A stretch of DNA of 63,997 nt, the filler included, from an uncultured bacterium (GTDB lineage: Bacteria; DAOPZR01): the NCBI GenBank assembly GCA_964637655.1. It is 5 parts of 5 records of this genome, joined end to end, with 100 filler letters (N's around TTAATTAATTAA, not from the genome) between each part and the next. Parts side by side here need not be neighbours in the genome. Positions count along the whole stretch, not along the records: positions 1 to 14,011 come from CAZWUZ010000069.1; 4 more parts are not named here. One strand, 5' to 3'. The position numbers and the translations under genes were made by a program. Positions within the stretch are counted from its first letter, which is position 1. Each line of letters begins with the position of its first letter. The notes under the pieces are model-generated. The model saw nothing but the letters and a program-made list of their open reading frames with translations, did no database searches and had not been told where the DNA came from. This document shows, one piece after another, positions 1-63,997 of the stretch.

Positions 1-7
1 ATGTCGG

Positions 8-1408
8 ATGAGTCGCAGGCCGGACTATTATCAGCGCGTAGCGGATTTCTGCCGGCAAAGGATATCGGAAACGGAACGGAACGCAGACAATCTGCCGGGT
101 AAGCTGGATGAAGTTCTGAGTCTGCTCGACCTAATGAACAAGTTCGAGGTTGTACAGAATGCCGAGATTGTAGAAATGGCTGAAAAGTGGTGCGCGTTCG
201 CAGAGGAGTCTGGCGACTGGTTTCGTGCGACATTCTATTGGGAGTTCCTGGACAAGATGACGCGTGCCGACACGAATTCCGACAAGGCTATGAGCGTCCG
301 TAAGTGCATGGCAATCGCCTACGAAAAATGCGCCTTGTGGTGGGCAACCAACAATCCACCTGACTATCAGTCGGCGGCACATTGGATGCTCAAGACGAGG
401 GAATTGCTGAGGTTGCTGAATGCGGACCAGGCCGAATTGAAGGGAGTCCATGATTTGCTGTGCGAATACCAGAAACAGGGCGCGAACGGCGGCTCGGCAT
501 GCGTGACTCGAATTGACATTACGGACACCATCAAGAGGGCCGAGTCCTTTGTTTCGGGCAAGGGCTTCTACGAGGCGTTATTTGCGATAAGCCGCATGAT
601 AGCGCCCATGAACAAGACAGCGATGCGCGAACGGGCGCGTACCTTTTTTAGGAACTCACCACCCATGATGGTGATGTCAACCCGCCAAATGATAGGGAAG
701 AACGGTAAGGTAATCGCGACCGGAAGAGGATTGTCTGGAGACGGAGTCAGCAGCGATGACGTATTAGATGACGAGGCCATCAGATTGACCGGGCAACAGC
801 GAGACCTCGTGGCCAGGGCATGTCTTTCTCCGGCGTTCCGCTGCTTGGTAAGCGAGCATATGTTCAGACCGGGGGATTTGCTCCCTCTGTTGACCCATTC
901 CCCGTTCGTACCGCCGGGTCGGGAGGAAATATTCGCCAGGGGGTTATACTACGGGTTGAACGGCGATTTGATGCTGGCCGCCCACCTGCTGGTGCCTCAG
1001 GTGGAGAATTCCATTCGTATAATCCTGAGCAATGCCGGTGCTGTGGATACAACAGTAAAGCCGGCGGATAAAGAAGTGGAGCAGTATAAGATGCTCGGGG
1101 CATTGTTCAGGGAACCGAAAGCCATCGAGGTGTTTGGCGAAGATTTAGTGTTTGATTTGATGTCGCTGCTCAGCGAGCAATATGGCTCGAACCTGCGGAA
1201 CGACATCGCCCATGGCTTGCTGGATGCTCCGCAGTTTCACTCGACAACGGTTCAGTATTTCGTATGGTTGACGCTGCACCTTTGTCTTAGTCCGGTTATT
1301 GAGATAAATCGACAGCGGGCCGCGCGAGCCGCAGAAAGTGCTGCTGCAGCTATGCCTGATGTTTCGGGCGAATCGTCTCTTTCAGGGATGACAAGCGGAA
1401 AGGAATAA
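8..1408 (+). CDS. DUF4209-family (HEPN-like) protein, probably 5'-truncated by the window edge
   Basis: C-terminal 'AAHLLVPQVENSIRIIL...FGEDLVFDLMSLLSEQYGSNLRNDIAHGLL' with an RxxxxH motif (RNDIAH), typical of DUF4209/HEPN proteins; helical N-terminal part. Confidence 0.75.
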   Translation: MSRRPDYYQRVADFCRQRISETERNADNLPGKLDEVLSLLDLMNKFEVVQNAEIVEMAEKWCAFAEESGDWFRATFYWEFLDKMTRADTNSDKAMSVRKCMAIAYEKCALWWATNNPPDYQSAAHWMLKTRELLRLLNADQAELKGVHDLLCEYQKQGANGGSACVTRIDITDTIKRAESFVSGKGFYEALFAISRMIAPMNKTAMRERARTFFRNSPPMMVMSTRQMIGKNGKVIATGRGLSGDGVSSDDVLDDEAIRLTGQQRDLVARACLSPAFRCLVSEHMFRPGDLLPLLTHSPFVPPGREEIFARGLYYGLNGDLMLAAHLLVPQVENSIRIILSNAGAVDTTVKPADKEVEQYKMLGALFREPKAIEVFGEDLVFDLMSLLSEQYGSNLRNDIAHGLLDAPQFHSTTVQYFVWLTLHLCLSPVIEINRQRAARAAESAAAAMPDVSGESSLSGMTSGKE

Positions 1409-1411
1409 CCA

Positions 1412-2044
1412 ATGGAGATAATCTTTGCGGATAAGTACTATGATACTGCTGAGTGGGTAGCTGGTAAGTATAAACAAGAACTCGCTACCGCATTGGCTGA
1501 GATTGATGCTGGGGTATCGGCGGCCGACACTGATATGGGGCACGGAGCGGATTTCCCTGCAGTAATAGTAGAAATATTTAAGAGCGTGGATATCGCGTCG
1601 ATAGCGACGGCGGGCGGATTAGGAATGCTTGCCTTGGGTGGAGATAAACTGAACAAGAGCATTGAAGGGTGGCTGGAAATCGGAAAGAAACTCATGAAGG
1701 TGTTCCGTAAAATAGTTCCGGCCCGAATAGATGAAAGTGCCGCGGAATTGATTGCCCTTAAAGACGTATTTTCTCCAGCTCGTGAAGTTGCCGCAACCAA
1801 AATCGTCGGTATCACAATCCAGGTGATTGAGTTTTCACCTGTTAACCAGGGAAAGGGAAAATTGGGAAGGCGCCCAGACGCCCTGTATATTGTCGCGGTG
1901 AAACTACAGGACCGGGTATTCTTGTATGGCATTAGGTCAAATTCGACCATTGATATCAAGCAGGAATACAGTACCGACTGGAGTAGATTTCACGAACAGC
2001 CAATTGACTGGGCAATTCGGATGCCCCAAAGCAATGGCAAGTGA
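1412..2044 (+). CDS. hypothetical protein (element cargo)
   Basis: 210-aa ORF starting 3 nt after the previous stop, with an upstream AGGA; no recognisable domain. Confidence 0.7.
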   Translation: MEIIFADKYYDTAEWVAGKYKQELATALAEIDAGVSAADTDMGHGADFPAVIVEIFKSVDIASIATAGGLGMLALGGDKLNKSIEGWLEIGKKLMKVFRKIVPARIDESAAELIALKDVFSPAREVAATKIVGITIQVIEFSPVNQGKGKLGRRPDALYIVAVKLQDRVFLYGIRSNSTIDIKQEYSTDWSRFHEQPIDWAIRMPQSNGK

Positions 2045-2111
2045 GGTGTGATATGAAAACAATAAGGGTTGAGCCCAATGAATTACAAACAACAGGACGT
2101 TGAGACGCCTT

Positions 2112-2849
2112 ATGGAACGATTACCTCCAAAGTCCTCAACTGTCCGGGCATTGTTCGCTAAGTCGGGCAACGAATGTTCGTTCCCCGGCTGTGGGCAAGC
2201 CCTCGTCGATGACCGAAATCTCCTGGTTGGTGAGGTATGCCATATCAACGCCGTAAAAAACACCGAGGCCCGTTACGATGCGACGAAGACCGAAGAGGAG
2301 CTTCGCGACTACGATAACCTGATTCTGCTGTGCCATGCGCACCATGTCCGAGTCGATTCATTGGCTGACGAGTATCCAGCTCCTGTACTCCGGACCATGC
2401 GCGAGAATCACGAACGGACCGTCGAACATAAGGTTTACACGGTGTCTGACGATATCGTCAACGATGCCCTGTTTCAACTCTTAAAGTTGGAATGGGAACC
2501 ATACTTCGAGCCAACCATAGAATACCTGATTGCAGATATCATGGAGGGTCGCGGCGGACAGCAGGGTATGAACCGCCTAGCCGGCCAGGTCGGGGTCCTT
2601 CTCGATGCGACTCTTTACATTCTTACGCTTCGTGCGCTAGCGAGCGCTGCACTCCAGGAGCGACACCGGCTTCTTAGAGAACACCAAGAGTGGCAGGAGC
2701 ATCGGCATCGTGAGGCACATAAGGCCAGCCTTGAAATGGCAGGTGGTACAATGGCACCACTGCTCTACGGCGGGACCTACAATGATATTACCGAGCAGAG
2801 AATTGAGTACCTTCGCAATACCTACTCCCTGAAAGCGGAGCATCATTAA
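2112..2849 (+). CDS. HNH endonuclease fused to a C-terminal LprI/DUF1311-like helical domain
   Basis: N-terminal 'LFAKSGNECSFPGC...GEVCHI...NLILLCHAHHVRVD' zinc-binding HNH; C-terminal 'QQGMNRLA...EWQEHR...GGTMAPLLY...TEQRIEYL' follows the LprI pattern; ATG at 2112 preferred over TTG at 2100. Confidence 0.75.
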   Translation: MERLPPKSSTVRALFAKSGNECSFPGCGQALVDDRNLLVGEVCHINAVKNTEARYDATKTEEELRDYDNLILLCHAHHVRVDSLADEYPAPVLRTMRENHERTVEHKVYTVSDDIVNDALFQLLKLEWEPYFEPTIEYLIADIMEGRGGQQGMNRLAGQVGVLLDATLYILTLRALASAALQERHRLLREHQEWQEHRHREAHKASLEMAGGTMAPLLYGGTYNDITEQRIEYLRNTYSLKAEHH

Positions 2850-3193
2850 TCATGAAATGCGTGCCAATAGACGCAGCGGGTTGGAATCAGGGGGGAGCTG
2901 GGACACGGGTGCGCCTGCAATCGTGCGTTATACGCGCTCGTAGGCGGCACATTTTCAGGCAGCGAACGCCAAAATCTCGCAAGTCGGCAGGGAGAGCCAC
3001 TACTATATAGTGTAAGCACGCCCGCCCCGAACGTTCCGCACACGCTCGCCGGCCCGACAACCCGCGCCGTCGGCCAGGTCGGGCGGCCGCGGCCCGGTGG
3101 GTTAGCTGGCGGGAGAGCGGCGCGGGCGGTGGTGGCTGTACATGTTCGCATTCCGATGGGACTATCCAGCCCAACCGAATAGACAGATTCGGA

Positions 3194-3970
3194 CTAATCA
3201 ACGTCACTGGTCTCGTCGAGATTATTCAAGTTGGCAATGGTGGCGTAATTGCGCTGAACAACCAGCACTGGCAATACGACAACATCGTAGATGTCCTCTT
3301 CCTGAGAGTAAGTGTGCGGACGGTACTCTGCATACTCCTTCTGGGTGCTGTCCTTGATGAGCCAGAACCCTGACTTTTGGTTCGCGACGACGACCCCGAT
3401 ATTCACGGTCACCCCGCCGCGACTGTTGTTCGCAGGCTCGACCACGACGGCTACGCAGGTGTTCCATTCCCACTTTGTGCTCACGAAAAGGGTATCGCCC
3501 TTCAATATCCCCCTGCCGTGATTGTCGGTTCTTGCCTTGGTCGCAACACAGGCGCAGTTGCGCGGAATCTGGTCGGAGGTTATTCCGACATCCATGACCT
3601 TTCTTGCCTGGCGTCTACCTTTTGGCGACGAAGCGTTGTCGCCAGATTTCTGCGCCTCCCCCTTGGGCCTTCGCGTGCCCTGCGGAAACTCAATCAACGG
3701 AATCAAGTTGTCCTCAATCCTCTTGACAGGGGCTGGCGCCGGAACATCGTTGCTCAACCCCAGCAGCACAGACACGGGAACCTGGAAGGTCTTAGCGATG
3801 AGGTAGATTGCGTCAATGGATGGCATGTAGCTTCTCTGCAGCCAGCGCGATATGTTGGCAGGCGTGACCCCAATCGCACGTGCGAACTCAGAGTTATTTC
3901 CGTGGTATCTCTCGTCGATGATTGACTTGATTTTTGACGATACTGCCTTCTGGAAATCGGTGTTCTTCAT
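3194..3970 (-). CDS. XRE/CI-like HTH transcriptional repressor
   Basis: 'NNSEFARAIGVTPANISRWLQRSYMPSIDAIYLIAKTFQVPVSVLLG' HTH; beta-rich C-terminal domain reminiscent of a degenerate S24 domain; divergent from the rightward operon. Confidence 0.85.
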   Translation of the reverse strand: MKNTDFQKAVSSKIKSIIDERYHGNNSEFARAIGVTPANISRWLQRSYMPSIDAIYLIAKTFQVPVSVLLGLSNDVPAPAPVKRIEDNLIPLIEFPQGTRRPKGEAQKSGDNASSPKGRRQARKVMDVGITSDQIPRNCACVATKARTDNHGRGILKGDTLFVSTKWEWNTCVAVVVEPANNSRGGVTVNIGVVVANQKSGFWLIKDSTQKEYAEYRPHTYSQEEDIYDVVVLPVLVVQRNYATIANLNNLDETSDVD

Positions 3971-4045
3971 TTTGGCCTCCGCAAGCCTATAGTAACATAG
4001 GTTCGGATGTAATGCAAGCGCGAACAGTGGCGCACTTGGTAGGAC

Positions 4046-4074
4046 TTGACAAGCGCTGGATTTTGTGATATAAT
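4046..4074 (+). promoter_or_regulatory. consensus sigma70 promoter of the element's rightward operon
   Basis: TTGACA (4046-4051), 17-nt spacer, TATAAT (4069-4074) with extended -10 TG at 4066-4067. Confidence 0.85.
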
Positions 4075-4171
4075 GCTCTCAAAGGCGGAAGAAAGGGCCG
4101 CCGAATTTTTTACCGTGAAGATTGCAAAAACTAAAAAATGCGCGATAGTGCGCATGTATTAAGAGTGGGCG

Positions 4172-4268
4172 GGCAGGACACGACGGACGGGCAGGCAGGT
4201 AGTGCTCGCCTGACACCCCGCCTAGGTAAAAGCAGGACCGGCGTCAGTACGGCGCGTTGACGCCGAGT
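4172..4268 (+). repeat. structured leader motif, copy A
   Basis: GGCAGGACACGACGGACGGG identical to 5004-5023, then hairpins including CGGCGTCA/TGACGCCG (4239-4265). Confidence 0.7.
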
Positions 4269-4318
4269 CGGATAAAGCGATGGTTGGCAAGAAGGCGTGC
4301 CAATGAAAGGAAGGCGAT

Positions 4319-4744
4319 ATGAGAGCGACGGCAGGGTTGGCTTGGTTGGTTGACGACACTCGGTTCGGCCAGAGGGACGCGGCCAACAATGGCCCCGGCG
4401 GTGCGGCAGACCGTGTTAATCCGCCTTTCCCCATTGGCGACCGGTATCGGGCCAGAGAACTCGCCGAAGCCGCGGAGTTCTTCATTGCTCGGCGTGACAC
4501 GAACCTTTTTCCGCCTGGAGATGAGGGTGATGGCGAACCGTGGTGGCTGGGCGACATGGCGCGCGAAAGGCAGGTGTGCTGCGAAGGCATCGACACCTTC
4601 TCACGCCATTTTATCGAGCACTGCCGGACTTACAGGCACGTGGCCGCGTTGTGTGGCGTGGATGCGCGCGAGCTGAGGGAATACGTGAGACGGCTTGACC
4701 GCCGCCGGGAGACCAATCGCCCGTGCTATGTGAAGGAAATGTAG
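4319..4744 (+). CDS. phage-like hypothetical protein with a possible metal-binding CC...HC...H motif
   Basis: RBS AAGGAAGG upstream; 'RQVCCEGI...HCRTYRHVAALCGVD'. Confidence 0.65.
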   Translation: MRATAGLAWLVDDTRFGQRDAANNGPGGAADRVNPPFPIGDRYRARELAEAAEFFIARRDTNLFPPGDEGDGEPWWLGDMARERQVCCEGIDTFSRHFIEHCRTYRHVAALCGVDARELREYVRRLDRRRETNRPCYVKEM

Positions 4745-4837
4745 TCGTGGTATCGCGCTTGTGGTCGGGACCTGCCGGCGGCAGGACGAGGAAGGGGGTG
4801 GTTTAAAGGTTGCAGGGCTAACAACTGACCGGGAAGA

Positions 4838-4983
4838 GTTTCCTCTGCGTATGCAGAGATGAACCAGAAAAAGGCTGACCCGGAGCCTGAACAAAATTTC
4901 CTCTGCGTATGCAGAGATGAACCAGAATAAGGCTGCTCCGGAGCCTGAGTAAAAATTTCCTCCGCGTATGCAGAGACGAGGCC
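4838..4983 (+). CRISPR. cas-less type I-E-like mini array: 3 repeats, 2 short near-identical spacers
   Basis: 29-nt repeats RTTTC-CTCTGC-GTAT-GCAGAG-ATGAACCA at 4838-4866 and 4896-4924, degenerate third at 4955-4983; same 5+6+4+6+8 architecture as I-E repeats; spacers 29 and 30 nt. Confidence 0.65.
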
Positions 4984-5003
4984 GGGAAAGGGGGAGGGTT
5001 CCA

Positions 5004-5105
5004 GGCAGGACACGACGGACGGGTTTGCTGGAGACACACGCCGAACAAGCCCGCCCAGATGAGCAGGACCGGCAGGCAGTACGGCGTCGTTGACGTCGGC
5101 CGAGT
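5004..5105 (+). repeat. structured leader motif, copy B
   Basis: 20-nt identity with 4172-4191 plus shared AGCAGGACCGGC..CAGTACGGCG..GTTGACG..CCGAGT. Confidence 0.7.
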
Positions 5106-5171
5106 AACTGATGGTCAGTGCAGATAAATAAACCGGCTTGCATGGCGGCAGGACGAAGGGGGGTGAAAACA

Positions 5172-5543
5172 ATGACGCTGCTCAAAATGGTGGAGTTGCA
5201 CGGATACGACGCGCGGCAGGATGTGGGGCGTGTCCCTGAAACTCCCGACGTGAAAACGGTCGTAGGCATGGTGCCGGTGCCGCCCGCTAACCTTGATTGC
5301 TGGGACTACGCGGACGGTGGCAGGAATGTGATGCGTTATTCCGGGGTGCACTCTGGTCTTGGCAGGACCGAGGACGGGAAGTGGTATATCTGCAACTTCG
5401 GCAAATCCGACGAAGGCAAAACGTATTTTGCCGCTCTGGTTACCGAAGAACACGCGAAGGAGCGTGTGTTGCAGTGCGTACCGCAGGACTATGAGAAGTT
5501 CTTCGGCGAACCCGCGCCGGAACTGCAGGTGCGGAAGCCGTAG
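5172..5543 (+). CDS. phage-like hypothetical protein
   Basis: RBS AAGGGGGGTG before ATG 5172; followed by a terminator-like hairpin. Confidence 0.65.
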   Translation: MTLLKMVELHGYDARQDVGRVPETPDVKTVVGMVPVPPANLDCWDYADGGRNVMRYSGVHSGLGRTEDGKWYICNFGKSDEGKTYFAALVTEEHAKERVLQCVPQDYEKFFGEPAPELQVRKP

Positions 5544-5586
5544 AACAAAGCTCTCCCGAGGAGGGCGAGGATGAGTACGGTTGAAC

Positions 5587-5621
5587 GGCCGCCGGCGCCA
5601 CTGAACGGCCGGCGGCCTTTT
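5587..5621 (+). terminator. intrinsic terminator-like hairpin
   Basis: GGCCGCCGGC-11 nt-GCCGGCGGCC followed by TTTT. Confidence 0.65.
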
Positions 5622-5656
5622 ACAAAAAGCCCGTTTATAGCGGGCGGGAAAGGAGG

Positions 5657-6046
5657 ATGGTGGTGGAAGACAGCAAGCAGTTAACCTTCGAGGGATTCGA
5701 GGAGACCGAGGCAGCACCTGCACGGCGAATCACGCGTCGGGCTGCGGCGCGTCGGCTGAAACCCGAACGCGTCGTTATCGCCAGTCAGGCCGTAGATGTC
5801 GCAGGTCTGTACCGGGATATCGAGGCGGCCGCCGACAAGGCAGCCGCGGACAGGTACGGAGTCCATGGCGTCTGCCTCGGCGTGCAGATGGTCTTTCCGG
5901 GATGGGAGTGGGTCGTTGACGGGTATGAGGTCCACATCGGCCACCGTGAAGACCCGACTCGCAGCGAGACGATTATCGTGGCCGTGAACACCGCTCCGGG
6001 GAATGGCAAGTCCCGGCGGAACAGGCAGGAACGGCTGGCGGCGTAG
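5657..6046 (+). CDS. hypothetical protein
   Basis: 129-aa ORF with AAGGAGG just upstream, bounded by two similar terminators. Confidence 0.55.
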   Translation: MVVEDSKQLTFEGFEETEAAPARRITRRAAARRLKPERVVIASQAVDVAGLYRDIEAAADKAAADRYGVHGVCLGVQMVFPGWEWVVDGYEVHIGHREDPTRSETIIVAVNTAPGNGKSRRNRQERLAA

Positions 6047-6089
6047 AGATAATGCTGCGCGCAGAGGAGCATACCTATGGGGAGCGACA

Positions 6090-6123
6090 AAAAGCCGCCG
6101 GCATAGAACGGCCGGCGGCTTTT
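6090..6123 (+). terminator. intrinsic terminator-like hairpin (twin of 5587-5621)
   Basis: AAAAGCCGCCGGC-ATAGAACG-GCCGGCGGCTTTT. Confidence 0.7.
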
Positions 6124-6176
6124 CTGGAACGCTGCCTGCGTATGGCGGGCAGGAACAACAGGGCGGGAGGCAGCCC

Positions 6177-6686
6177 ATGAGGTGCGATGAGAAGACGTCA
6201 ATGAGCGCACGGTGCAAGTCGGTGGCGAAGGAGAATACCCCGTCTGGTGTAACGGTGGTAGTCCATAATCCGCTGGAGTCCGTCGTGTGCTTTGACGAGA
6301 ACAAAATTGTCGTGCCGAAGCCCAAAACGAATGTGGCATTGTACATATATCTGTTTGCCTGTTATGCGTACAAATTCTGGGGGTCATTTGTCGGGAGGCC
6401 GCGGTACGATTTTAAGATGGCCGCGCACAGGTGGATATGCGTGGTTATGGCCGAAGCCGGCATCGAAGTGTCCCGGAAGAGCATCGAACATGCCAGACGG
6501 AAAGTCGGCTACCTGGTTAGACAAGCGCGGCAGCTGGGGCTGACTGTTGACCCGGCGACAGCATCGTTCGTACGGCGTCCATCCAATGCTCTTGCCAGAT
6601 GGTCGGCGCGACGGACGGAAATGTTTGCGCATTCCCGGAAGGTCAGTATTGGTGCGTCAACTTCCTACTATAACGCATGGACCTAG
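6177..6686 (+). CDS. hypothetical protein
   Basis: GGGAGG RBS before ATG 6177 within ORF 6003..6686; basic C-terminal half. Confidence 0.5.
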   Translation: MRCDEKTSMSARCKSVAKENTPSGVTVVVHNPLESVVCFDENKIVVPKPKTNVALYIYLFACYAYKFWGSFVGRPRYDFKMAAHRWICVVMAEAGIEVSRKSIEHARRKVGYLVRQARQLGLTVDPATASFVRRPSNALARWSARRTEMFAHSRKVSIGASTSYYNAWT

Positions 6687-6970
6687 TCGTCGCGCGCAAG
6701 CGCAGAAAGGAGAAACGGGTGAATTTCTACAGCGTAAACGACTTAACGGTGGAAGCGGCGGACATGCGCGCCGCCGCGCGAATCGCCGCTGCCCGGATTG
6801 CCGCGGCAAAGTACGGCCAGGCGGGAGTGGTCAGCCGCGTGCATCCGCCGGTAGCAGACTGCAAGGACGGCAAGGCGACGTTCCACGCATTCGTCGGCCG
6901 TGCGGTGGACGGTGTGGCCGGCGTGACTATCGGCGAGGAGGTAGCCATCGATGTCTGCACCTGCCAGTAA
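6677..6970 (+). CDS. hypothetical protein
   Basis: 97-aa ORF overlapping the previous stop; alternative start at GTG 6719 after GGAG. Confidence 0.5.
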   Translation: MDLVVARKRRKEKRVNFYSVNDLTVEAADMRAAARIAAARIAAAKYGQAGVVSRVHPPVADCKDGKATFHAFVGRAVDGVAGVTIGEEVAIDVCTCQ

Positions 6971-7409
6971 CACCGGCCGGCACCACGCCATCCCGCCCGT
7001 CACGGCGAGATGCCGTCATGCACGACCGACGTGTTCACCGGCAGGTCAATCGGCCCGGCGGCCAGAAAAAGTATGGCCATAGCGCACGCTTTGTGCGGCA
7101 TATCAGTAGGGGGAGAGTGTAGACCATGGTGACCGCCCCGTCACTGACCCCCGGCGCGCTGACCGGCGAGCCGAACTGCCTGGCGGTGCGCGGCGACCGG
7201 GCGGCGGACCATCCCGCGACTGGGGCGATTGCGGGCATGGCGGCCGTGCCGCGGGCGGGCGCTGACGGCGTGCGTGACACTGTGCCTGGTTCCTTGCCGG
7301 GCGTGGTGGGCGGGGATAATTGCACGGACAGCCATGCTGGGGGCGCGGGAGCGCGTGTGAGAAATTGTAATATCTTCTCGCTGGAGGGCAGGAAAAATAT
7401 TATTTCTGG

Positions 7410-7428
7410 TGGTATAATACAGGGGAGG
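7410..7428 (+). promoter_or_regulatory. extended -10 promoter and RBS for xis/int
   Basis: TGGTATAAT at 7410-7418 in an AT-rich patch; GGGGAGG at 7422-7428 before ATG 7434. Confidence 0.55.
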
Positions 7429-7433
7429 CTGAA

Positions 7434-7961
7434 ATGAAATCAGAAACACCGACGGGGACGAGTCCTCACGACGCGCCGTCGCGCATGACCATGGTCGGCA
7501 TAATCGACGGTGTGGGCGCGCGTGCGGCGACACCTGCTGATTGGCCGCGCTCATCGATGATTTGGCCGACTGGCAGGGAAGAGGCGAGGCCTGCGGCACA
7601 GGCTACACCCGCGCCTCCCATGCCCGCTGAGGGAGTGCTCTACACTTTGGCCGAGGCATGTGAACGCCACAGGGTCTCTTACTCCACAGTTACTCAGGCA
7701 ATGATAGCGGATAAACGGCTTTATAGTTACGGGGTGCAGGTCGGAGCCGGCACTGAGCGCCGGACACGGCTTTACACCGATGCGGATTTCATTGCCATGT
7801 TGCGGGCTCGGCAGACGTTAAGGGTGCATAAGCCGCGGAAAATTAGCGGCGCGCGCGTTCGCAAAGATGTGCCGTTGAGTCTCGTGAGCATGGGGGAGAA
7901 CGATGACTGCGCGTACTGCGGCTTCATTGATTGTCCTTCCTTCGCGCTGGCGGGCTGCTGA
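7434..7961 (+). CDS. MerR-like HTH protein, putative excisionase/recombination directionality factor
   Basis: 'LYTLAEACERHRVSYSTVTQAM...RLYTDADF' winged-HTH pattern; directly upstream of and overlapping the integrase. Confidence 0.55.
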   Translation: MKSETPTGTSPHDAPSRMTMVGIIDGVGARAATPADWPRSSMIWPTGREEARPAAQATPAPPMPAEGVLYTLAEACERHRVSYSTVTQAMIADKRLYSYGVQVGAGTERRTRLYTDADFIAMLRARQTLRVHKPRKISGARVRKDVPLSLVSMGENDDCAYCGFIDCPSFALAGC

Positions 7962-9381
7962 TGCTCAGGCACTGGCATCTCGGGTTGACTCGATACTGGC
8001 AACTGTTCCCGCAGCGTTGTTGGCCAAGGCGCGCGAATCGCTCGTTAAACATTTGTGCGGTGAGAACCTGCCTGAACATGTGCGCTTCCAAAGTGGTCGA
8101 TATCGCTGGCGCGCCGAGGTCGTTGGCATGGATGGAAGGCGTCAGCGCGTCAATCGGGTGTTGGGTAGGGATTGGGATGGTGCCACTCAGGAACAATATC
8201 GTCATTATGAGGCGATACTCGCGACGGCGAAGCGAACAGGCGACTACCGCCCACTGTTTGCGGCGCTAGAATCGCGCAAGCAAGCGGAGCAGGAGGAAAA
8301 CGTTGCCCGCGAGAATGAGCGGCGTCATGCAGCGACGCTGTCGGAACTGTGGGCTGCTGTGGGCTATAAGTTCAAAACACGTGGTGGTGCATCCTATGAG
8401 ACCGTCCCGACGATATGGGGTGGCCTGACCGTTGGCGAACTGGCACCGCAAGCTATTGACGACGGTATCCGCAAAATGGAAACGGGAGATTTTACGCGAC
8501 CCGTTCGCGGCGGAGCAGTGCGTAAGGCCTTGCCGCTTTCACTGAGCACGATATTTAGGTATTTGGGTGCATTCCGCAGGGCGTTGGCTGTATTGCGTCA
8601 TGCCGACCCGAACATTCCTGACATATTCGCGCAGCGTGCGGCACAGTTGCCCCCCGGTAAGACAATCATCGACCTTATCTATCCCGACCGTGCGGATGCC
8701 ACTACCATTACGCAGCGTCGCAAGCCGTCCGTCTATTTGGACTGGGAAAACGAACGTTTGCCGTTCATCGCGCGTGTGTTGTCTTCAGGGTTGCCCTACG
8801 CCGATGACCTTGCGGCGCTGCTGCTGACGATATCGCTGACTGCTGCCCGCCCTGGTTCTCTGGCAAGACTAACTTGGGAAGCGACGCCGGGAGGCAATTA
8901 CATACAGGGAAATACGATTGTTTTGTACCAGACAAAGGTCACGCGACGTCGGCGGTCGGCAGCAGCGGAAGTGTTCGAAGTGAACGGACAATTGCGAAAG
9001 ATATTAGCCGCACAGTACAAGCGCACGGGCGGTAAAGGATGTGTTTTCCCGGAGCTGCCTGCCAATGCCAGCGACGCTATTGACCGGCTTGCTGACCGTT
9101 GGGGTCTGACCAGATTGCGGGCGTACTTGTTCAAGCATTCAGCGCTGACCGACCTGGCACTTGTCACTGGAGGCACTCCGGCTCAGCTGGCCGCTGAGGT
9201 ACACATACAGGCGCAGACGCTCGATAAGCATTATGTGCTTGCGCGAGGGGTCACAGCAAGGCATTTTCGCCCGGGCAAACCCGGTGACACGATATTGTCG
9301 CGGCTGTGGTATAGCGGACTGGCGATTGATTCCGCACGCGGCATCATCAGGGTGTCGGCCGAAATCGGCGGAATCAAGTGA
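7903..9381 (+). CDS. divergent tyrosine recombinase (integrase)
   Basis: Box I 'LTAARPGSLARLTW', 'QTKVT', box II 'RAYLFKHSALTDL...HIQAQTLDKHY'; ends about 100 nt from a tRNA 3' fragment; start uncertain. Confidence 0.8.
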   Translation: MTARTAASLIVLPSRWRAADAQALASRVDSILATVPAALLAKARESLVKHLCGENLPEHVRFQSGRYRWRAEVVGMDGRRQRVNRVLGRDWDGATQEQYRHYEAILATAKRTGDYRPLFAALESRKQAEQEENVARENERRHAATLSELWAAVGYKFKTRGGASYETVPTIWGGLTVGELAPQAIDDGIRKMETGDFTRPVRGGAVRKALPLSLSTIFRYLGAFRRALAVLRHADPNIPDIFAQRAAQLPPGKTIIDLIYPDRADATTITQRRKPSVYLDWENERLPFIARVLSSGLPYADDLAALLLTISLTAARPGSLARLTWEATPGGNYIQGNTIVLYQTKVTRRRRSAAAEVFEVNGQLRKILAAQYKRTGGKGCVFPELPANASDAIDRLADRWGLTRLRAYLFKHSALTDLALVTGGTPAQLAAEVHIQAQTLDKHYVLARGVTARHFRPGKPGDTILSRLWYSGLAIDSARGIIRVSAEIGGIK

Positions 9382-9484
9382 TAAAAACAGAGGGGACCAA
9401 AAAAGGACCAATCGTCCGAGCACAAAACCATGATTCGCTGCAACAGCGACGAGAAACAATACGTGTTGTGCGCGAAAAGATACC

Positions 9485-9529
9485 CTCCGGAGCAAGAGGT
9501 CGTGGGTTCGAATCCCGCCGGGCGTACCA
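9485..9529 (+). repeat. att site: 3' half of a tRNA-Arg(CCG) gene
   Basis: CTCCGGA anticodon loop, GCAAGAGGTCGTGGGTTCGAATCCCGCCGGGCGTACCA T-arm and acceptor end; no D-arm and no complementary 5' anticodon stem upstream. Confidence 0.85.
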
Positions 9530-9541
9530 CTTATCATAACG

Positions 9542-9570
9542 ACCCGCCAGAAAATCTATGGCGGGTTTTT
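9542..9570 (+). terminator. intrinsic terminator of the original tRNA gene
   Basis: ACCCGCCA-9 nt-TGGCGGGT followed by a T run, just after the CCA end. Confidence 0.75.
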
Positions 9571-10048
9571 CTTTATCCCTTGAAATCGTAGCGGATTGCG
9601 CGCCCTCCAGTTGAACTGCGGGCACCTCACGTACTCATTGAGACAATAACCTGAGGTGACTGTACCATCCCCTCCTGAGGGTAAATTTGGTTGCAAAAGG
9701 CCCCCTAACTGGCCCCTGAAATAGTCACATTTTTTCCGAGCAGTGGTACATACTTATCTTGTGCGTGACCGGACGATCTTACGGGATAGTAGCCGATTCC
9801 CTGCTGAACAGGCAAGGTTTGCAGTGCATATTTAGAATCGTCAACTCCAAAATGGGGCGCAATATGGAATTGATTGGCCGGTAGTATACTACTGGCGAAG
9901 GAAGGTATTGTCCTGATCGCGGGAAAGACCGCCTGCTGCGTGATGGTCTCCTGTGCCTGACGGTGGGAGTGATTTCCTTGCCGGATTGCAACCATCACGA
10001 CTACCGGCTTGAGTTCAGAATTGGCGATATCAGCGTCATTTCCCCGTG

Positions 10049-10130
10049 CTACAACACGCCGCCGCCCATGATGAGGTGGAGGAGGCCGAGCATGATGGCG
10101 CGGCCGCGGCGTCGACCGTGGGCGATGATG
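10049..10130 (-). pseudogene. internally deleted duplicate of the 11252-11557 region
   Basis: 10049-10100 matches 11252-11303 and 10093-10130 matches 11520-11557, joined at TGATGGCG. Confidence 0.65.
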
Positions 10131-10266
10131 CAAGTCTTTGGCAGACCATACGTATATCTTCTTGTATGAAAACATGATGCATAGTTGATAGAGGTCTCTT
10201 TGCCAATAAGTTGTCAATGTGAAAATTGCGTGCCCCTTATTTTAGAAAAGTAATACCAACAAAATA

Positions 10267-10295
10267 TTGACATACTTATATTCTTGTGGTATGAT
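10267..10295 (+). promoter_or_regulatory. vapBC promoter with a possible autoregulatory inverted repeat
   Basis: TTGACA-17 nt-TATGAT with TG extension; CATAC...GTATG inverted repeat overlapping both boxes. Confidence 0.7.
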
Positions 10296-10317
10296 ATTGT
10301 CGGATTGGGAGAATGTC

Positions 10318-10548
10318 ATGGAAAAAGCAGTGGTCACTACGAAGGGACAGATTGTAGTTCCCGTGAAGCTGCGCCGGAGGTTTGGCATCAAACAGGGCAC
10401 GGTGGTTGGTTTCATAGAACAAGGCAACGCGCTAATGATCAAGCCGCTGGATAGGGACTATTTCACGCAAATGTCCGGCATCGCGGAAACCAAGGGGAAA
10501 ATGCTGCGGTCGCTGCTCGAAGACAAAAAAACGGAGCGCAAACGGTGA
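10318..10548 (+). CDS. vapB: AbrB/MazE/SpoVT-family antitoxin
   Basis: 'VTTKGQIVVPVKLRRRFGIKQGTVVGF' AbrB signature; overlaps the PIN gene. Confidence 0.9.
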   Translation: MEKAVVTTKGQIVVPVKLRRRFGIKQGTVVGFIEQGNALMIKPLDRDYFTQMSGIAETKGKMLRSLLEDKKTERKR

Positions 10549-10961
10549 AACCGGTCGTGCTTGATAGTTACGCGGTCATATGCTACCTGGAGCAGGAAGA
10601 AGGGGCAGCGGAGATAGCCGAATTATTTTCACAATGCGTAGCGCATAACCAACCGGCATTTTTCTGTGTGGTGAACTGGGGCGAAGTTCTGTATCACGCG
10701 CATCGGGTTGGTGGCGAAGTGACCGCGCAGCGCATCGAAAACGCGATGCGCTCGCTGCCGCTTGAACCGGTCGATGTCGACCAGGAACTTACCCGCATAG
10801 CGGCCAGAATGAAGGCGCACAATAAAATGTCGTATGCTGATTGTTTTGCCGCTGCGCTGGCGATCAAAAAGCGCGCGGGATTGTACACCGGTGACCCGGA
10901 ATTCGTGCAAGTTGAAAAAGAAGTGCACCTCAAATGGATCGGCAAGAAACATGGTAAATAA
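10545..10961 (+). CDS. vapC: PIN-domain VapC toxin
   Basis: 'VVLDSYAV', 'VNWGEV', 'MSYADCFAAALA', 'LYTGDPEF' PIN acidic residues. Confidence 0.92.
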   Translation: MKPVVLDSYAVICYLEQEEGAAEIAELFSQCVAHNQPAFFCVVNWGEVLYHAHRVGGEVTAQRIENAMRSLPLEPVDVDQELTRIAARMKAHNKMSYADCFAAALAIKKRAGLYTGDPEFVQVEKEVHLKWIGKKHGK

Positions 10962-11251
10962 CGTGAGCATCACACGATGGTGAAAATGACAGCGCATGAT
11001 GGTGCGGACCGCGGGCGATGATGCATAACCAGCCCGCATGTTCTGTGGCGTGGTGGTGCCCCGGTACTTAGCGTGCACAGTATACTCGGAAAAAGTCATG
11101 ACTTTTCCCGGTATAGGCGTCAGCAAGATTTACCAGAACGGTGCTGAAAACATCCTAACGGTTACCGCGCGTCGCTGGCTTGCTTCCCTGCCTTAGCCGG
11201 GGTGCTCACAAAGCGCTCGATGAACTGGCCAGCGTGTCGCCCGGGCCAATA

Positions 11252-11500
11252 TTACAGCACGCCGCCGCCCATGATGAGGCGGAGAAGGCCGAGCATGATG
11301 GCGACACCGCAGGCAATCAGGCCGATGATGGAGCCGGTCTTGCTCCCTTCCTTCGTCGTGGCGAGGGCGACGCCGCTGACGATGATGCCGACGGCGGCAA
11401 ACGGGATGTTGAGCCAGTTGTAGGCGCCCAGGCAAGGGATGAAGCCGACGAACATCCCGATCATGGCGAGAATCCCGAACACTAAACTGAAGATCTGCAT
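11252..11500 (-). CDS. small three-helix membrane protein
   Basis: MQIFSLVFGILAMIGMFVGFIPCLG...LLRLIMGGGVL, 82 aa, GGAGGG RBS. Confidence 0.75.
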   Translation of the reverse strand: MQIFSLVFGILAMIGMFVGFIPCLGAYNWLNIPFAAVGIIVSGVALATTKEGSKTGSIIGLIACGVAIMLGLLRLIMGGGVL

Positions 11501-11835
11501 GGTGTCCCTCCGGGGAGCGTGATGGCGCGGACGCGGCGCCGGCCGCGGGCGATGATGAGCAGCCAGCCGGCCGCAACGAGCGGCAGGGCGGCAGGATGGG
11601 CGGCCTGCGCGGCAGCGAGGTCGCCGCGGGCCAGCGCACAGACAGCGGTGGTCATGCCGCAGAGGATGCAGGAACCGCCGGCACGTTGCGCGGGGCACGG
11701 AGCGACGGCGGTAAGCAGCAATTCCGGCCCGGCAAGGCGCGCGGCAAGCGGCAGGCCGGCCGCCATGCCGGCGAGGATACCGGCAACGACGAGCAGGGCG
11801 GCGCGCAGGTCGCGGTGGAAACCGTTCGCTTCCAT
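11482..11835 (-). CDS. DUF2752-family membrane protein
   Basis: 'CP....GGSCILCGMTTAVCALARGDLAAAQAAHP' motif. Confidence 0.75.
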   Translation of the reverse strand: MEANGFHRDLRAALLVVAGILAGMAAGLPLAARLAGPELLLTAVAPCPAQRAGGSCILCGMTTAVCALARGDLAAAQAAHPAALPLVAAGWLLIIARGRRRVRAITLPGGTPCRSSV

Positions 11836-11883
11836 GAGACGAGCATAGCAGCATGGCCCCGACGCGTCAATGCGCAACCCTGA

Positions 11884-11996
11884 CCCTCACCCGGCGCTGC
11901 GCGCCGCCCTCTCCCAGAGGGCGAGGGGAAAGACGGGCAGAAACAGCAGAACCCTCACCCGGCGCTGCGCGCCGCCCTCTCCCCGAGGGCGAGGGG
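11884..11996. repeat. two tandem REP-like palindromic elements (CCCTCACCC...CCCTCTCCC...GAGGGG family)
   Basis: Copies at 11884-11928 and 11952-11996; related copies at 22231-22282 and, reversed, 47278-47322. Confidence 0.8.
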
Positions 11997-12140
11997 AACA
12001 GGCATGTCGTCACCCTGGGCATGAAGCAGCAGCACACGGATGACGGCTGGATTCCCGATAGCACACCTCGGGAATAACCAATATTATCCGGAGCACAATT
12101 TGGAAATGACGGGCAGGAGCAACCACGCGGGCGATAGACC

Positions 12141-60775: not shown

Positions 60776-62047
60776 TCAGCCAACTTTTCCCTCAGCAAAC
60801 GCAGATGGCAAAAGCGGGGCATAATAGTGCGGCAGGAAGTATACAGAACGGTTCCCGATTTTCATAGTGGCAGTGAGATTGTCGTTCAACACAATTGCTG
60901 CCGGAGCTTCAGGGTATTGTTTGAGGAATTGACGCAACCCGGGAGGTATCTCCGGTTGCTTCAATGCGGCTTTAACTTCAATCGGCAAGGGCTGACGATC
61001 CTGCTCCAGGATAAAATCAACTTCATCCTGCTGGCGGGTACGCCAGTAATATACTTCCTGTGCCAGACGCAGATTTTTGCGCAGTTCCTGCATCACAAAC
61101 CACTCCCGCAACGCTCCCTGGTCAGGTCGTTTCGCCAGCGGCCGGAAATCGCGAAGAATGGCGTTCCGCAAGCCACTGTCAAAAAAATAGGTTTTCATGG
61201 TTTGCTTCAGTTCACGCCCGCGATTGGTAAAGTAGGGTTTCAGCAATTCGAGCACGAACATCTGGTTGAGGATGGACAGATCCTTCCGTACCTGCCGCAA
61301 TGAATAATTGAGGTGTTGCGACGTCCCTTGCTCGCTCAGCAGGGTTCCTTCCTGTGCCGCCAGCATGACCAGCAACCTGTTGAATGAAAGGATGTCTTCT
61401 TCGCGCAACAGGGCTTTGATGTCCTTGTTGATGAAGGTGGCAACCAGATCGAGCAAGAGCCGCTTCCGGGCTTCGGCAGTCTGCTCATGAACGAGTCCGG
61501 GCATCCCGCCGAAAATCAGGAATTCAGCCCAGGCCGCACGCAAATGCTGATGCCGGGCAGGGGCAATAACCTCTGCCATCGTGTCCGGCAGATGCAGCCC
61601 GCGCCGATAACCCGGCAGCCACTCCGCAAACGACAGCGGGAAAACCCGGTAGAGACGACGGCGGCCGGCCAGGCTTTCCCGCAAATGCCGGTGCATTTCC
61701 AACGCCGAAGAACCCGAGGCGAACACCTTGACTCCCTGATAGCCGTCAAATAACGCCTTGAACAACCGCGTGGCATCAGGCAGGTAATGAAATTCGTCAA
61801 TCAACAGAACCTGCCGCGAACGGCCGATGTCGGCCAGCAGTTCGCCATGGCCGCGGGCAAAGAACGCCGTATCACCCGGCTGTTCCAAGTCGAAATACCG
61901 GCACGGCAGTTTTTGCCGGCGGCAGTGTGCGGCCACGGCGCGGAGCAGCGTGGTTTTCCCCGCCTGACGCGGGCCGATGACAATGCCGACTTCACGGCGC
62001 GACTGCTCGGCCACCAACTCGGACAGCAACACCCGTTTGAGCTTCAT
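60776..62047 (-). CDS. AAA+ ATPase with DUF4143 and a C-terminal PD-(D/E)xK-like motif
   Basis: 'GPRQAGKTT', 'LLIDEFH', 'SGSS', 'FGGMP', 'EVDFI...PIEVK'. Confidence 0.9.
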   Translation of the reverse strand: MKLKRVLLSELVAEQSRREVGIVIGPRQAGKTTLLRAVAAHCRRQKLPCRYFDLEQPGDTAFFARGHGELLADIGRSRQVLLIDEFHYLPDATRLFKALFDGYQGVKVFASGSSALEMHRHLRESLAGRRRLYRVFPLSFAEWLPGYRRGLHLPDTMAEVIAPARHQHLRAAWAEFLIFGGMPGLVHEQTAEARKRLLLDLVATFINKDIKALLREEDILSFNRLLVMLAAQEGTLLSEQGTSQHLNYSLRQVRKDLSILNQMFVLELLKPYFTNRGRELKQTMKTYFFDSGLRNAILRDFRPLAKRPDQGALREWFVMQELRKNLRLAQEVYYWRTRQQDEVDFILEQDRQPLPIEVKAALKQPEIPPGLRQFLKQYPEAPAAIVLNDNLTATMKIGNRSVYFLPHYYAPLLPSAFAEGKVG

Positions 62048-62500: not shown

Positions 62501-63727
62501 TCAGGAGCAGTGGGCGAGAAAACTCCATGCTGGAATCACGAATATCCGTTCGGAAACAACGGTGACCGCGTCAGCATTATGCACAAGTTGAATGAGTGGC
62601 ACACCCAACTTGTGCCCCCAGTACCGGGCATGAGGGGATATGGTAGTAGCAGACAATTTCGCTTCAACCAGCAGCAGCGGCCCTTGCTCATTCGTCAGCA
62701 GAAAATCTGCTTCCCGGCCATCGCGGTCTTTGACAAAATACAACTGATAGCTGCCCAGGCCGGCGTTGTTCAGCCGGTCAACCAGGCAGCGCAGCTGAAG
62801 CGCAACAAAATTCTCGTACCGGCAACCTTCGTGCTTAACCAGTGAGTGGGCATAATAGTATATTTTCCGTTCCTTGCGTATCGCCCGCGCCAGTTTCAGA
62901 TGATACGGCGGTACTTCAAAGATGAGCATCGCCCGCTTCAGTAATTCCACATAACTGTCGACGGTCTCATGTGCCACCGCCAGATCCAGCATCAGGTTGC
63001 TGATGCTCAAGGGACTGCCCACCCGTTCCGGCAACAGCAGCATCAGATTCTCAATGGTCTTGAGTTTCTGGATGCCGGCCAGTTGCGTGACATCTTCCCG
63101 TGCCACCTGGAGCAGGTATGCATCGTGCCAGCGTTTCAGAAACGGCCGCTTCCGGTTTACTGCCACTTCCGGGAAAGCGTTATGCTCATAGAGTATCCGG
63201 TACGCAGTTTGATACTTGCGCGACAATGCCGTCAAGGTCATGGCGTTCCGCGCAAGCCACGCGGGGTTCAGAATGTTTCCGCCTGTCTGCAGCGGGGTCA
63301 GATCGCGGGCGTATTCGGCCACGCCAAAAGGATTGAGGGTGAAGGGAAAATAGCGCCCGGCCAGTGAATCGCCCGCCCGCAGGAACAGATCGAGCCGGGC
63401 GCTGCCGGTAATGACAAAAATGGCCCGGTCGGAATAATAATCGTACAGACCCTTGACCAGGTTTTTCCACTGGCGCAGTTTGTGAATCTCATCGAAGACG
63501 AAGATGGCGTCGCCGCGACGGGTGAGATAGCGGTCAAGAAAGTGGGGATTCTGGAAATAGGCTCGCCGCACCGCCAGATCATCCCAGTTGAAATAGCTGC
63601 CCTTCCCGGCTGACAGCAGGTGCCGGGCGAGGGTGGTTTTCCCGCTCTGCCGCGGCCCGGAAATGAAAACCATCCGTTTCTTGAAGCCCCGGATGATCGG
63701 TTCAAGCGCCCGCTGATAGTAGACCAT
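62501..63727 (-). CDS. AAA+ ATPase with DUF4143 and a C-terminal PD-(D/E)xK-like motif
   Basis: 'GPRQSGKTT', 'VFDEIHK', 'TGSARLD', 'SLAGR', 'EADFL...LVEAK'; ATG 63727 preferred. Confidence 0.9.
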   Translation of the reverse strand: MVYYQRALEPIIRGFKKRMVFISGPRQSGKTTLARHLLSAGKGSYFNWDDLAVRRAYFQNPHFLDRYLTRRGDAIFVFDEIHKLRQWKNLVKGLYDYYSDRAIFVITGSARLDLFLRAGDSLAGRYFPFTLNPFGVAEYARDLTPLQTGGNILNPAWLARNAMTLTALSRKYQTAYRILYEHNAFPEVAVNRKRPFLKRWHDAYLLQVAREDVTQLAGIQKLKTIENLMLLLPERVGSPLSISNLMLDLAVAHETVDSYVELLKRAMLIFEVPPYHLKLARAIRKERKIYYYAHSLVKHEGCRYENFVALQLRCLVDRLNNAGLGSYQLYFVKDRDGREADFLLTNEQGPLLLVEAKLSATTISPHARYWGHKLGVPLIQLVHNADAVTVVSERIFVIPAWSFLAHCS

Positions 63728-63997
63728 GAGCCAGTCCCCCACGACCATGCTACCACGGCCGCGGCTGCGCGTCAAGGCATATTTAGAGAGTACTCTATAA
63801 TTGCCGTTACCGGTTGGCCCGGCAGTTCCTGCAGTCGTTGCAAACCGCAAGGGTAAGTACAAATCGTACCTATCCTTGTGTGAACCTTGACGCACGCACA
63901 GCACACAGTGTTGAGGATCAGCGGCATCGGTGAGCACGGTGAGGGCATCCTCCGCCACGAACCACCATTCCCGGTTATGGGTCAGGCGCCGGACAAT

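Follow-up and report, generated by a model that had tools for sequence, protein, structure and literature searches.

What is a repeat array that resembles those of type I-E CRISPR systems doing on a mobile element, with no cas gene nearby and with spacers that resemble each other? The question is raised by a short locus, positions 4838–4983, in 63,997 nucleotides of DNA (hereafter the window) joined from five records of the genome of an uncultured bacterium (DAOPZR01; GenBank assembly GCA_964637655.1), the locus itself falling in the part taken from CAZWUZ010000069.1. An earlier, sequence-only reading had proposed that the locus might supply RNA anti-CRISPRs or mimics of CRISPR RNAs (crRNAs). 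On the evidence set out below, we think it on balance probable that the array is a cas-less mimic of a type I-E array, carried by an integrative mobile element and belonging to the RNA anti-CRISPR class represented by the Racrs and the Cracr arrays.

The array comprises 2.4 head-to-tail copies of a 58-nt unit spanning 4838–4983, each unit being made up of a 29-nt hairpin repeat and a hairpin-bearing ‘spacer’ of 29 or 30 nt. Tandem Repeats Finder places it at 4839–4976 (period 58, 2.4 copies, 91% matches, score 227), the sole entry among 70 for the window with a period greater than 26, and a repeat search recovers three in-register copies at spacings of 58 and 59 nt, with identities over 41 nt of 90% (copy 2) and 78% (copy 3). 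Read on the plus strand, the first repeat-like unit, psiR1 (4838–4866), has a 5-nt 5′ part, a 6-bp stem (CUCUGC/GCAGAG), a 4-nt GUAU loop and an 8-nt handle, AUGAACCA. It is followed by psiS1 (4867–4895, 29 nt), psiR2 (4896–4924), psiS2 (4925–4954, 30 nt) and a degenerate terminal repeat, psiR3 (4955–4983). The first two repeats differ at one of 29 positions only; psiR3 differs from psiR1 at six, chiefly at its 3′ end, where the handle has diverged. Both psiR1 (−10.2 kcal/mol, z −4.1 against shuffles) and psiR2 (−9.5 kcal/mol, z −3.6) fold well, while the fold of psiR3 (−4.8 kcal/mol, z −0.17) is no better than that of shuffled sequences because a C·A mismatch breaks its stem. The two spacer-like segments are identical at 24 of 29 positions, with five differences and one extra base, and share a 5-bp AGGCU/AGCCU stem closing a 7-nt loop that is predicted to form in psiS1 (−7.0 kcal/mol, z −2.7) and in psiS2 (−7.5 kcal/mol, z −1.4). 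The tandem repeats with their periods of 58 and 59 nt, the degenerate third copy and the likeness of two spacers that both keep the internal stem had all been described in the sequence-only reading and are confirmed. The 16-nt core CTCTGCGTATGCAGAG is found on the plus strand at 4843, 4901 and 4960 only, the third time with one mismatch; seven matches were counted in the window against 0.66 expected by chance, a count reached in none of 100 shuffles. Within the window the unit does not behave as a genome-wide repetitive extragenic palindrome, the core palindrome occurring nowhere else in it. Over 4840–5096, the array is also unchanged (0 differences) in a contig, X2, from a second sample.

To what extent are these repeats those of a type I-E system? 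The comparison was made with a reference set independent of the window. The best relatives of the BioA protein encoded in the window (56–60% identical) are found in Smithella, Deferrimicrobiaceae and ‘Deltaproteobacteria’ metagenome-assembled genomes, the host appearing to be Desulfobacterota-like, and 301 genomes were sampled from the phylum of the best relative. Cas6e (PF08798) is present in 29 of the 301, and 21 arrays adjoin those cas6e genes, their repeats aligning without gaps to the consensus GTGTTCCCCGCACnCGCGGGGATGAACCG. A covariance model (R1), for which these 21 genuine I-E repeats (Desulfobacterota) were the sole input, was searched without filters against both strands of the window. 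The top match in the window is exactly psiR1, at 4838–4866 on the plus strand and covering model positions 1–29 (18.6 bits, E 1e-4), and the third-best is exactly psiR2, at 4896–4924 and again at full length (12.8 bits, E 0.03); the maximum score in a control of 97,159 bases from 19 unrelated loci was 13.4 bits. At 19 of its 29 positions psiR1 is identical to the consensus, including seven of the eight handle bases (AUGAACCA compared with AUGAACCG), and the position and length of the stem and the length of the loop are the same in both. Of the ten differences, four amount to two compensatory changes of C-G to U-A stem pairs. The 29-nt I-E repeat profile consists of a 5′ GUnUU, a 6-bp stem, a 4-nt loop and an 8-nt handle of the AUGAACCG type, and psiR1 and psiR2 both fit the model built on it at full length. 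Since an independent model recovers the repeats and the residue match extends to 19 of 29 positions, the likeness to type I-E is, at the level of sequence, genuine, and it holds in the layout and register first proposed, with psiR1 standing above the 97-kb control.

The array departs from an ordinary I-E array in other respects. Its spacers are 29 and 30 nt long and its periods 58 and 59, as against a modal period of 61, corresponding to 32-nt spacers, in all 21 genuine I-E arrays of the phylum, and unique spacers of 32–33 nt are absent. There is also no cas gene in the 64-kb window, as had been stated from the outset: a tblastn search with 1,286 ORF (open reading frame) translations from 29 genuine I-E loci gave nine matches, all of non-cas ORFs, and Pfam and PADLOC scans of 44 window ORFs found no Cas family. 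One tblastn match at the right edge of the window, from ORFs adjoining cas6e, was inspected and proved to be a Bro-N-like EWWFV motif rather than Cas1. With its short, near-identical spacers and defective last repeat, the array departs from genuine arrays in the manner of published mimics.

The array sits in a 428-nt gap between two plus-strand ORFs: ORF1 (4319–4744, 141 aa), which is preceded by AAGGAAGG and whose stop codon lies 93 nt before the array start, and ORF2 (5172–5543, 123 aa), directly downstream. A sigma-70 promoter at 4046–4074 (+; TTGACA-17-TATAAT with an extended −10 TG) matches the consensus at 12 of 12 positions, as claimed earlier, and is the only plus-strand promoter predicted upstream of the array; no plus-strand terminator-like site is predicted between the two. 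Divergent from this early operon is a gene for a cI-like helix-turn-helix (HTH) repressor (3194–3970, −; Pfam HTH_3, 1.4e-7; PHROG transcriptional regulator/repressor families). At the element's right end is a gene for an integrase-like protein (7903–9381, +; PHROG phrog_1 integrase, 1.4e-9, with no Pfam match), and at ~9498–9529 (+) a fragment resembling the 3′ end of a tRNA (T-arm, acceptor and CCA), read from the sequence and not called as a tRNA by ARAGORN, is a probable attachment-site remnant at the element's right border. A possible excisionase-like HTH_17 protein (7434–7961, +) is a weak assignment (Pfam E 0.0044, below the cut-off). G+C content is 52–61% over positions 1–12,000 and 63–71% beyond, and the element is truncated by the left edge of the window. 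The low G+C content, the cI-like repressor, the promoter, the integrase-like gene and the tRNA fragment place the array in the early operon of an element that is integrative and probably temperate. The proposal that it is carried on such an element, on the sense strand of the operon served by the 4046 promoter, is likewise upheld by the plus-strand R1 match, the integrase-like gene and the tRNA fragment.

The tandem anatomy, the I-E likeness and strand of the repeats, the mobile-element context and the lack of cas genes in the window are direct observations, and they invite comparison with two kinds of published RNA. Racrs, encoded by viruses and plasmids, imitate single CRISPR repeats and sequester Cas6 and Cas7, two I-E examples (RacrIE1 and RacrIE2) having been validated; non-targeting crRNAs, like Racrs, inhibit interference through competition for Cas proteins (Camara-Wilpert et al., Nature 2023, PMC10651486). 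Like them, the array mimics a CRISPR repeat, is carried by a mobile element away from any CRISPR-Cas locus and is proposed to sequester Cas6 and Cas7. Racrs are, however, described as solitary, usually immediately behind their own promoter and often beside acr genes (PMC10651486), whereas the array has three units with spacer-like inserts, a promoter 790 nt away and no recognisable acr gene; by the published description, SRUFinder would class repeats lying within 100 bp of each other as an array or mini-array and not as a solitary repeat unit.

The second kind, the Cracrs, are viral copies of host regulatory crRNA-like RNAs (preprint 10.1101/2024.10.29.618823). According to that preprint, 64 of 219 Cracrs fall in 30 viral ‘Cracr arrays’, 20 of which are I-E arrays with two or three short spacers; each array's spacers are said always to be directed at different variants of a single CRISPR-Cas type, and to target variants of one cas promoter; and the host phyla given are Pseudomonadota, Bacillota and Actinomycetota. 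In the CracrIE array tested from a Salmonella prophage, two spacers of 24 and 21 nt alternate with three repeat-like units, the third of which is defective and poorly processed (10.1101/2024.10.29.618823). The array shares with Cracr arrays the lack of cas genes, carriage on a prophage-like element, three I-E repeat-like units, two spacers shorter than 32 nt, a defective third repeat and a single transcriptional unit, and at least two sub-canonical spacers between repeat-like units in one transcriptional unit, the arrangement by which such arrays are recognised there, is what is found here. It differs from the Salmonella example in that its spacers are 29 and 30 nt long with a conserved internal hairpin and its stem has two U-A pairs. 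It differs also in what defines a Cracr, a match to a CreR RNA or a cas promoter: no match above shuffled background was seen in the window or in 208 kb of DNA from the cas-upstream side of phylum I-E loci. The same-type targeting reported for Cracr-array spacers offers a natural reason for two similar pseudo-spacers, which could be aimed at two alleles of one host site.

A further comparator came from IMG/VR, in which a search for canonical I-E repeat ends spaced 20–30 nt apart returned a single contig, IMGVR_UViG_3300045988_157337 (here L177). At 8200–8374 (−) it has four I-E-like repeats (22.6–39.7 bits) with a period of 49 and three mutually similar 20-nt spacers (TTnnnnTTGCA). This array begins 22 nt after an ORF, adjoins genes for an HTH repressor and an integrase and is followed by a strong terminator, with no cas gene in 10.4 kb; judged from its sequence, it has the look of a Cracr-type array, not yet described, from a temperate virus of 70% G+C. 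The two arrays have in common that they are cas-less and I-E-like, lie beside a lysogeny module directly behind an ORF and have short, similar spacers. L177 differs in having four near-canonical repeats (up to 39.7 bits), a period of 49, unrelated spacer sequence and a terminator, and ORF1 is unrelated to the ORF that precedes it. The sequence-only reading had thought the tandem arrangement of similar short spacers an unusual architecture; given the 20 I-E Cracr arrays already described (10.1101/2024.10.29.618823) and L177, that part of the proposal must be given up, while the kind of locus it proposed, an RNA anti-CRISPR or crRNA mimic, stands on the I-E-like repeats, the lack of cas genes and the mobile element.

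The host regulators that Cracrs copy, CreR and CreA, share with the array a mini-array of repeat-like units around a short pseudo-spacer. CreR and CreA are, however, found inside cas operons, where a nearby promoter is echoed in them; the array belongs to a mobile element, without any cas gene, and no echo of it turned up in the window. Of 27 scanned stretches from the cas-upstream side of I-E loci in the phylum, two have CreR-like repeats, solitary or decayed, upstream of cas genes. In the first (L153), a solitary 34.2-bit repeat lies between cas3 and cas8e behind a TATAAT box (4274–4302, −). In the second (L155), a 15.4-bit repeat and a decayed repeat lie upstream of the cas genes (7170–7290, −), and the pseudo-spacer GGTCACAAGAGAC echoes GGTTCACAAGAGAG, which is found 60 nt downstream, just upstream of the next start codon. 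On the strength of these two loci, a host-side CreR-like circuit exists in the nearest phylum.

How might such an array work? Transcription, processing, loading into Cascade and any target are matters that we infer. Absence or inactivation of the cI-like repressor would free the 4046 early promoter, giving a transcript of ORF1, the array and ORF2. Host Cas6e would then bind the psiR hairpins and cut at the 3′ base of the stem, behind G4858 and G4916, with a third, inefficient cut perhaps behind G4975. One or two RNAs of 58–59 nt would be released, each with a AUGAACCA 5′ handle, a 29- or 30-nt pseudo-spacer and a hairpin 3′ handle. From the anatomy of I-E crRNAs (PMC5965381), the first predicted product (4859–4916, +; 58 nt) would comprise the 8-nt handle, psiS1 and a 21-nt hairpin handle; the second (4917–4975, +; 59 nt) is predicted by analogy to CracrIE2 (10.1101/2024.10.29.618823), and because psiR3 is defective its 3′ cut may fail, leaving a longer tail. 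These RNAs would assemble with Cas5, Cas7 and Cas6e in competition with the host's immune crRNAs. In the Cracr variant of this scheme they would steer Cascade to a single host site in two allelic forms (for example, a cas or toxin promoter), and the partially matching promoter would be repressed without cleavage and without triggering Cas3. As the two pseudo-spacers are short and near-identical, we slightly favour this Cracr-type reading over that of a plain, Racr-like decoy, which is nearly as likely.

We think it rather unlikely that the in-spacer hairpin is itself functional, either stalling Cas7 polymerisation, so that the RNA becomes a dead-end trap for Cas6e and Cas7, or mirroring a palindromic operator of a host cas or toxin promoter. 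Stalling of Cas7 would be a mode of decoy not yet described for type I-E; if the hairpin mirrors an operator, the units would together silence a pair of allelic I-E systems in an uncultured Desulfobacterota-like lineage that lies outside the three phyla reported for Cracrs.

A number of observations weigh against an I-E mimic. psiR3 is missed by the R1 model in the window at E ≤ 10, and the 12.8 bits of psiR2 fall inside the control background, of which the maximum is 13.4. The 21 genuine repeats all have a CCCC(G/A)C / G(C/U)GGGG stem in which C6–C9 and G19–G21 are invariant; the array has two U-A pairs at these positions, and its recognition by a typical Cas6e is therefore uncertain. Rfam, including its CRISPR-DR families, gives no match at the gathering threshold, nor at E ≤ 10 on 4000–5250. 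Scans for the stem-plus-handle pattern gave five single chance matches in JGI metagenomes and one in IMG/VR, none repeated, and in 401 genomes of the phylum five single matches as against two for a control pattern. I-E systems with a similar repeat do exist in the nearest phylum, in 29 of 301 genomes; no array with the identical CUCUGC/GCAGAG stem turned up in JGI, IMG/VR or the 401 genomes. The nearest predicted promoter, ~790 nt upstream, lies beyond the 250 nt used to pick Racr candidates, and no Acr, Aca or other family was recognised in the ORFs on either side. As for a target, the pseudo-spacers found nothing above shuffled controls in the window, nothing above shuffled-spacer background in the 27 stretches (208 kb) of cas-upstream-side DNA, and none in phages, plasmids or IMG/VR. 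A blastn search of the array against phages (E ≤ 10) returned nine records, all short chance matches, the one inspected (H1) being coding-like sequence; against plasmids there was no match. The 20-nt spacer core had one chance match in IMG/VR, inside a coding repeat that reads K-A-A-P-E-P-E.

Could the array have nothing to do with CRISPR? It might be a tandemly duplicated pair of hairpins that stabilises RNA or marks it for processing, that ends leftward transcription or that offers a regulator of the element palindromic binding sites, the I-E likeness being a coincidence, an explanation that we regard as unlikely. On the minus strand a T-run follows every hairpin, and four of the seven terminator-like sites in 3000–8000 fall within the array; yet seven such sites against the 4.7 expected from shuffles is not a significant excess, and no minus-strand gene ends there. 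Both stems are DNA palindromes and the region is rich in other repeats (a leader at 4168–4290 and 5003–5125; the heptamer GCAGGAC eight times), and Rfam, as noted, yields no CRISPR family. Against coincidence, R1 selects psiR1 as the best site in a search space of 128 kb, at full length, on the operon strand, in its own register and above the 97-kb control, and seven of eight handle bases match. Iterons, or an origin of replication, were rejected on the helical phase, the 58-nt period being 5.5 turns and hence out of phase, together with the result from the CRISPR model.

A distinctly unlikely alternative is that this is a working viral mini-CRISPR array, with which the element turns Cascade and Cas3 of the host's I-E system against competing mobile elements, its spacers covering two variants of a rival's gene. 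Viral mini-arrays with one or two spacers are known, most of their spacers targeting related viruses and their repeats being identical to those of the host (PMC11656645). Those of Saccharolobus SPV1 and SPV2 have in common with the array one or two spacers, no cas genes and reliance on host Cas proteins, and the likeness and orientation of the repeats would be the same as for a mimic. SPV1- and SPV2-type mini-arrays have normal-length spacers matching related viruses (PMC11656645), whereas here the spacers are short, at 29 and 30 nt as against 32 nt in all 21 genuine arrays of the phylum, and mutually similar; no protospacer was found in phages or plasmids (blastn, E ≤ 10), nor in IMG/VR, where the match to the 20-nt core lies in a coding repeat. 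The published mini-arrays are moreover described as having host-identical repeats, while the array differs at invariant stem positions from every repeat sampled.

It is also quite improbable that the array is a decaying relic, a captured and duplicated fragment of a CRISPR or mimic array that is now without function. Decay would account for the changes at stem positions that are invariant in genuine repeats, for the broken third repeat and for the lack of any target, cas gene or relatives found. The two stem changes are, however, compensatory, keeping the hairpin at −9.5 to −10.2 kcal/mol, and the array is identical in the second sample's contig. The repeats differ at one of 29 positions and the spacers at five of 29 plus an insertion or deletion; this is the direction expected if the repeats are under constraint, and with six differences it is not significant. 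Finally, it is extremely improbable that the ATG opening each ‘handle’ serves as the start codon of a short peptide, MNQKKADPEPEQNFLCVCRDEPE or MNQNKAAPEPE: both units have ATG AAC CAG and then an open frame of 23 or 11 codons, but the ATG abuts the hairpin with no Shine-Dalgarno sequence, stops occur in all three plus-strand frames across the array, and the two peptides differ in length and end because the 58-nt period is not a multiple of three, and the peptides were rejected on frame and on the missing ribosome-binding site.

The genes on either side of the array offer few clues. ORF1 and ORF2 are not paralogues and belong to no Pfam, PHROG, PADLOC or PDB family; PDB sequence searches and Atlas look-ups gave weak, uninformative leads only, and an AlphaFold model of ORF2 made without an alignment (pLDDT 52.6) was too poor for a fold search. 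Among 5.8 billion proteins each has one homologue, P0004 for ORF1 (65% identity) and P0002 for ORF2 (72% identity). No related loci of either were found in IMG/VR, and a blastn search of 3900–5600 against phages gave no match. The stretch is present in four wastewater DNA runs of one study, and two sediment runs match part of ORF2 only; no RNA run is among those listed as containing it. In the 95%-identical ORF2 relative from the two sediment runs, nine of 11 differing sites are at third codon positions, and ORF2 is on this account a real gene.

Several other features of the early operon may be recorded. A leader of ~120 nt is duplicated before ORF1 (4168–4290, +) and ORF2 (5003–5125, +), the first 20 nt, GGCAGGACACGACGGACGGG, being the same in both copies. 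In this leader RNAalifold predicts two stem-loops, with four pairs changed on both sides between the copies, and there is no Rfam match. The heptamer GCAGGAC occurs on the plus strand eight times within the 1.3 kb of 4173–5483, out of 12 forward copies in 64 kb, and not at all on the minus strand of that segment; two copies, just before the array (4777–4796) and before ORF2 (5144–5163), are in near-identical contexts resembling ribosome-binding sites. Immediately after the 4046 promoter, at 4084–4112 (+), a GGCGG...CCGCC hairpin with a 9-nt loop is followed by GAAUUUUUU, a terminator-like or 5′-stabilising structure at the start of the early transcript; the terminator scan made no call there.

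Further afield, the left part of the element (8–1408 and 2100–2849, +) has candidate defence cargo: a DUF4209 protein is matched by PADLOC PDC-S39 (5e-102), and an HNH-plus-LprI protein by PDC-M68A and by models of endonuclease effectors. Just beyond the tRNA-fragment border, 10267–10961 (+) encodes a MazE/AbrB-type antitoxin and a PIN-domain toxin (vapBC-like). At the other end of the window, tandem AAA_14/DUF4143 ATPases (60776–62047 and 62501–63997, −) match the PADLOC candidate system PDC-S01, the second of them opening with the Bro-N-like EWWFV motif and being cut by the window edge.

What would the array mean, should it prove to be a mimic? No new principle is involved, the concept being already covered by the Racrs (2023) and the Cracr arrays (2024–2026). 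If real, however, the array would extend RNA-based CRISPR mimicry by mobile elements to a Desulfobacterota-like lineage from wastewater, uncultured and of high G+C. With a repeat stem altered by compensatory drift and a hairpin in each pseudo-spacer, such an I-E mimic could inform us of what Cas6e and Cascade tolerate; it would also help in finding the host circuit at which it aims.

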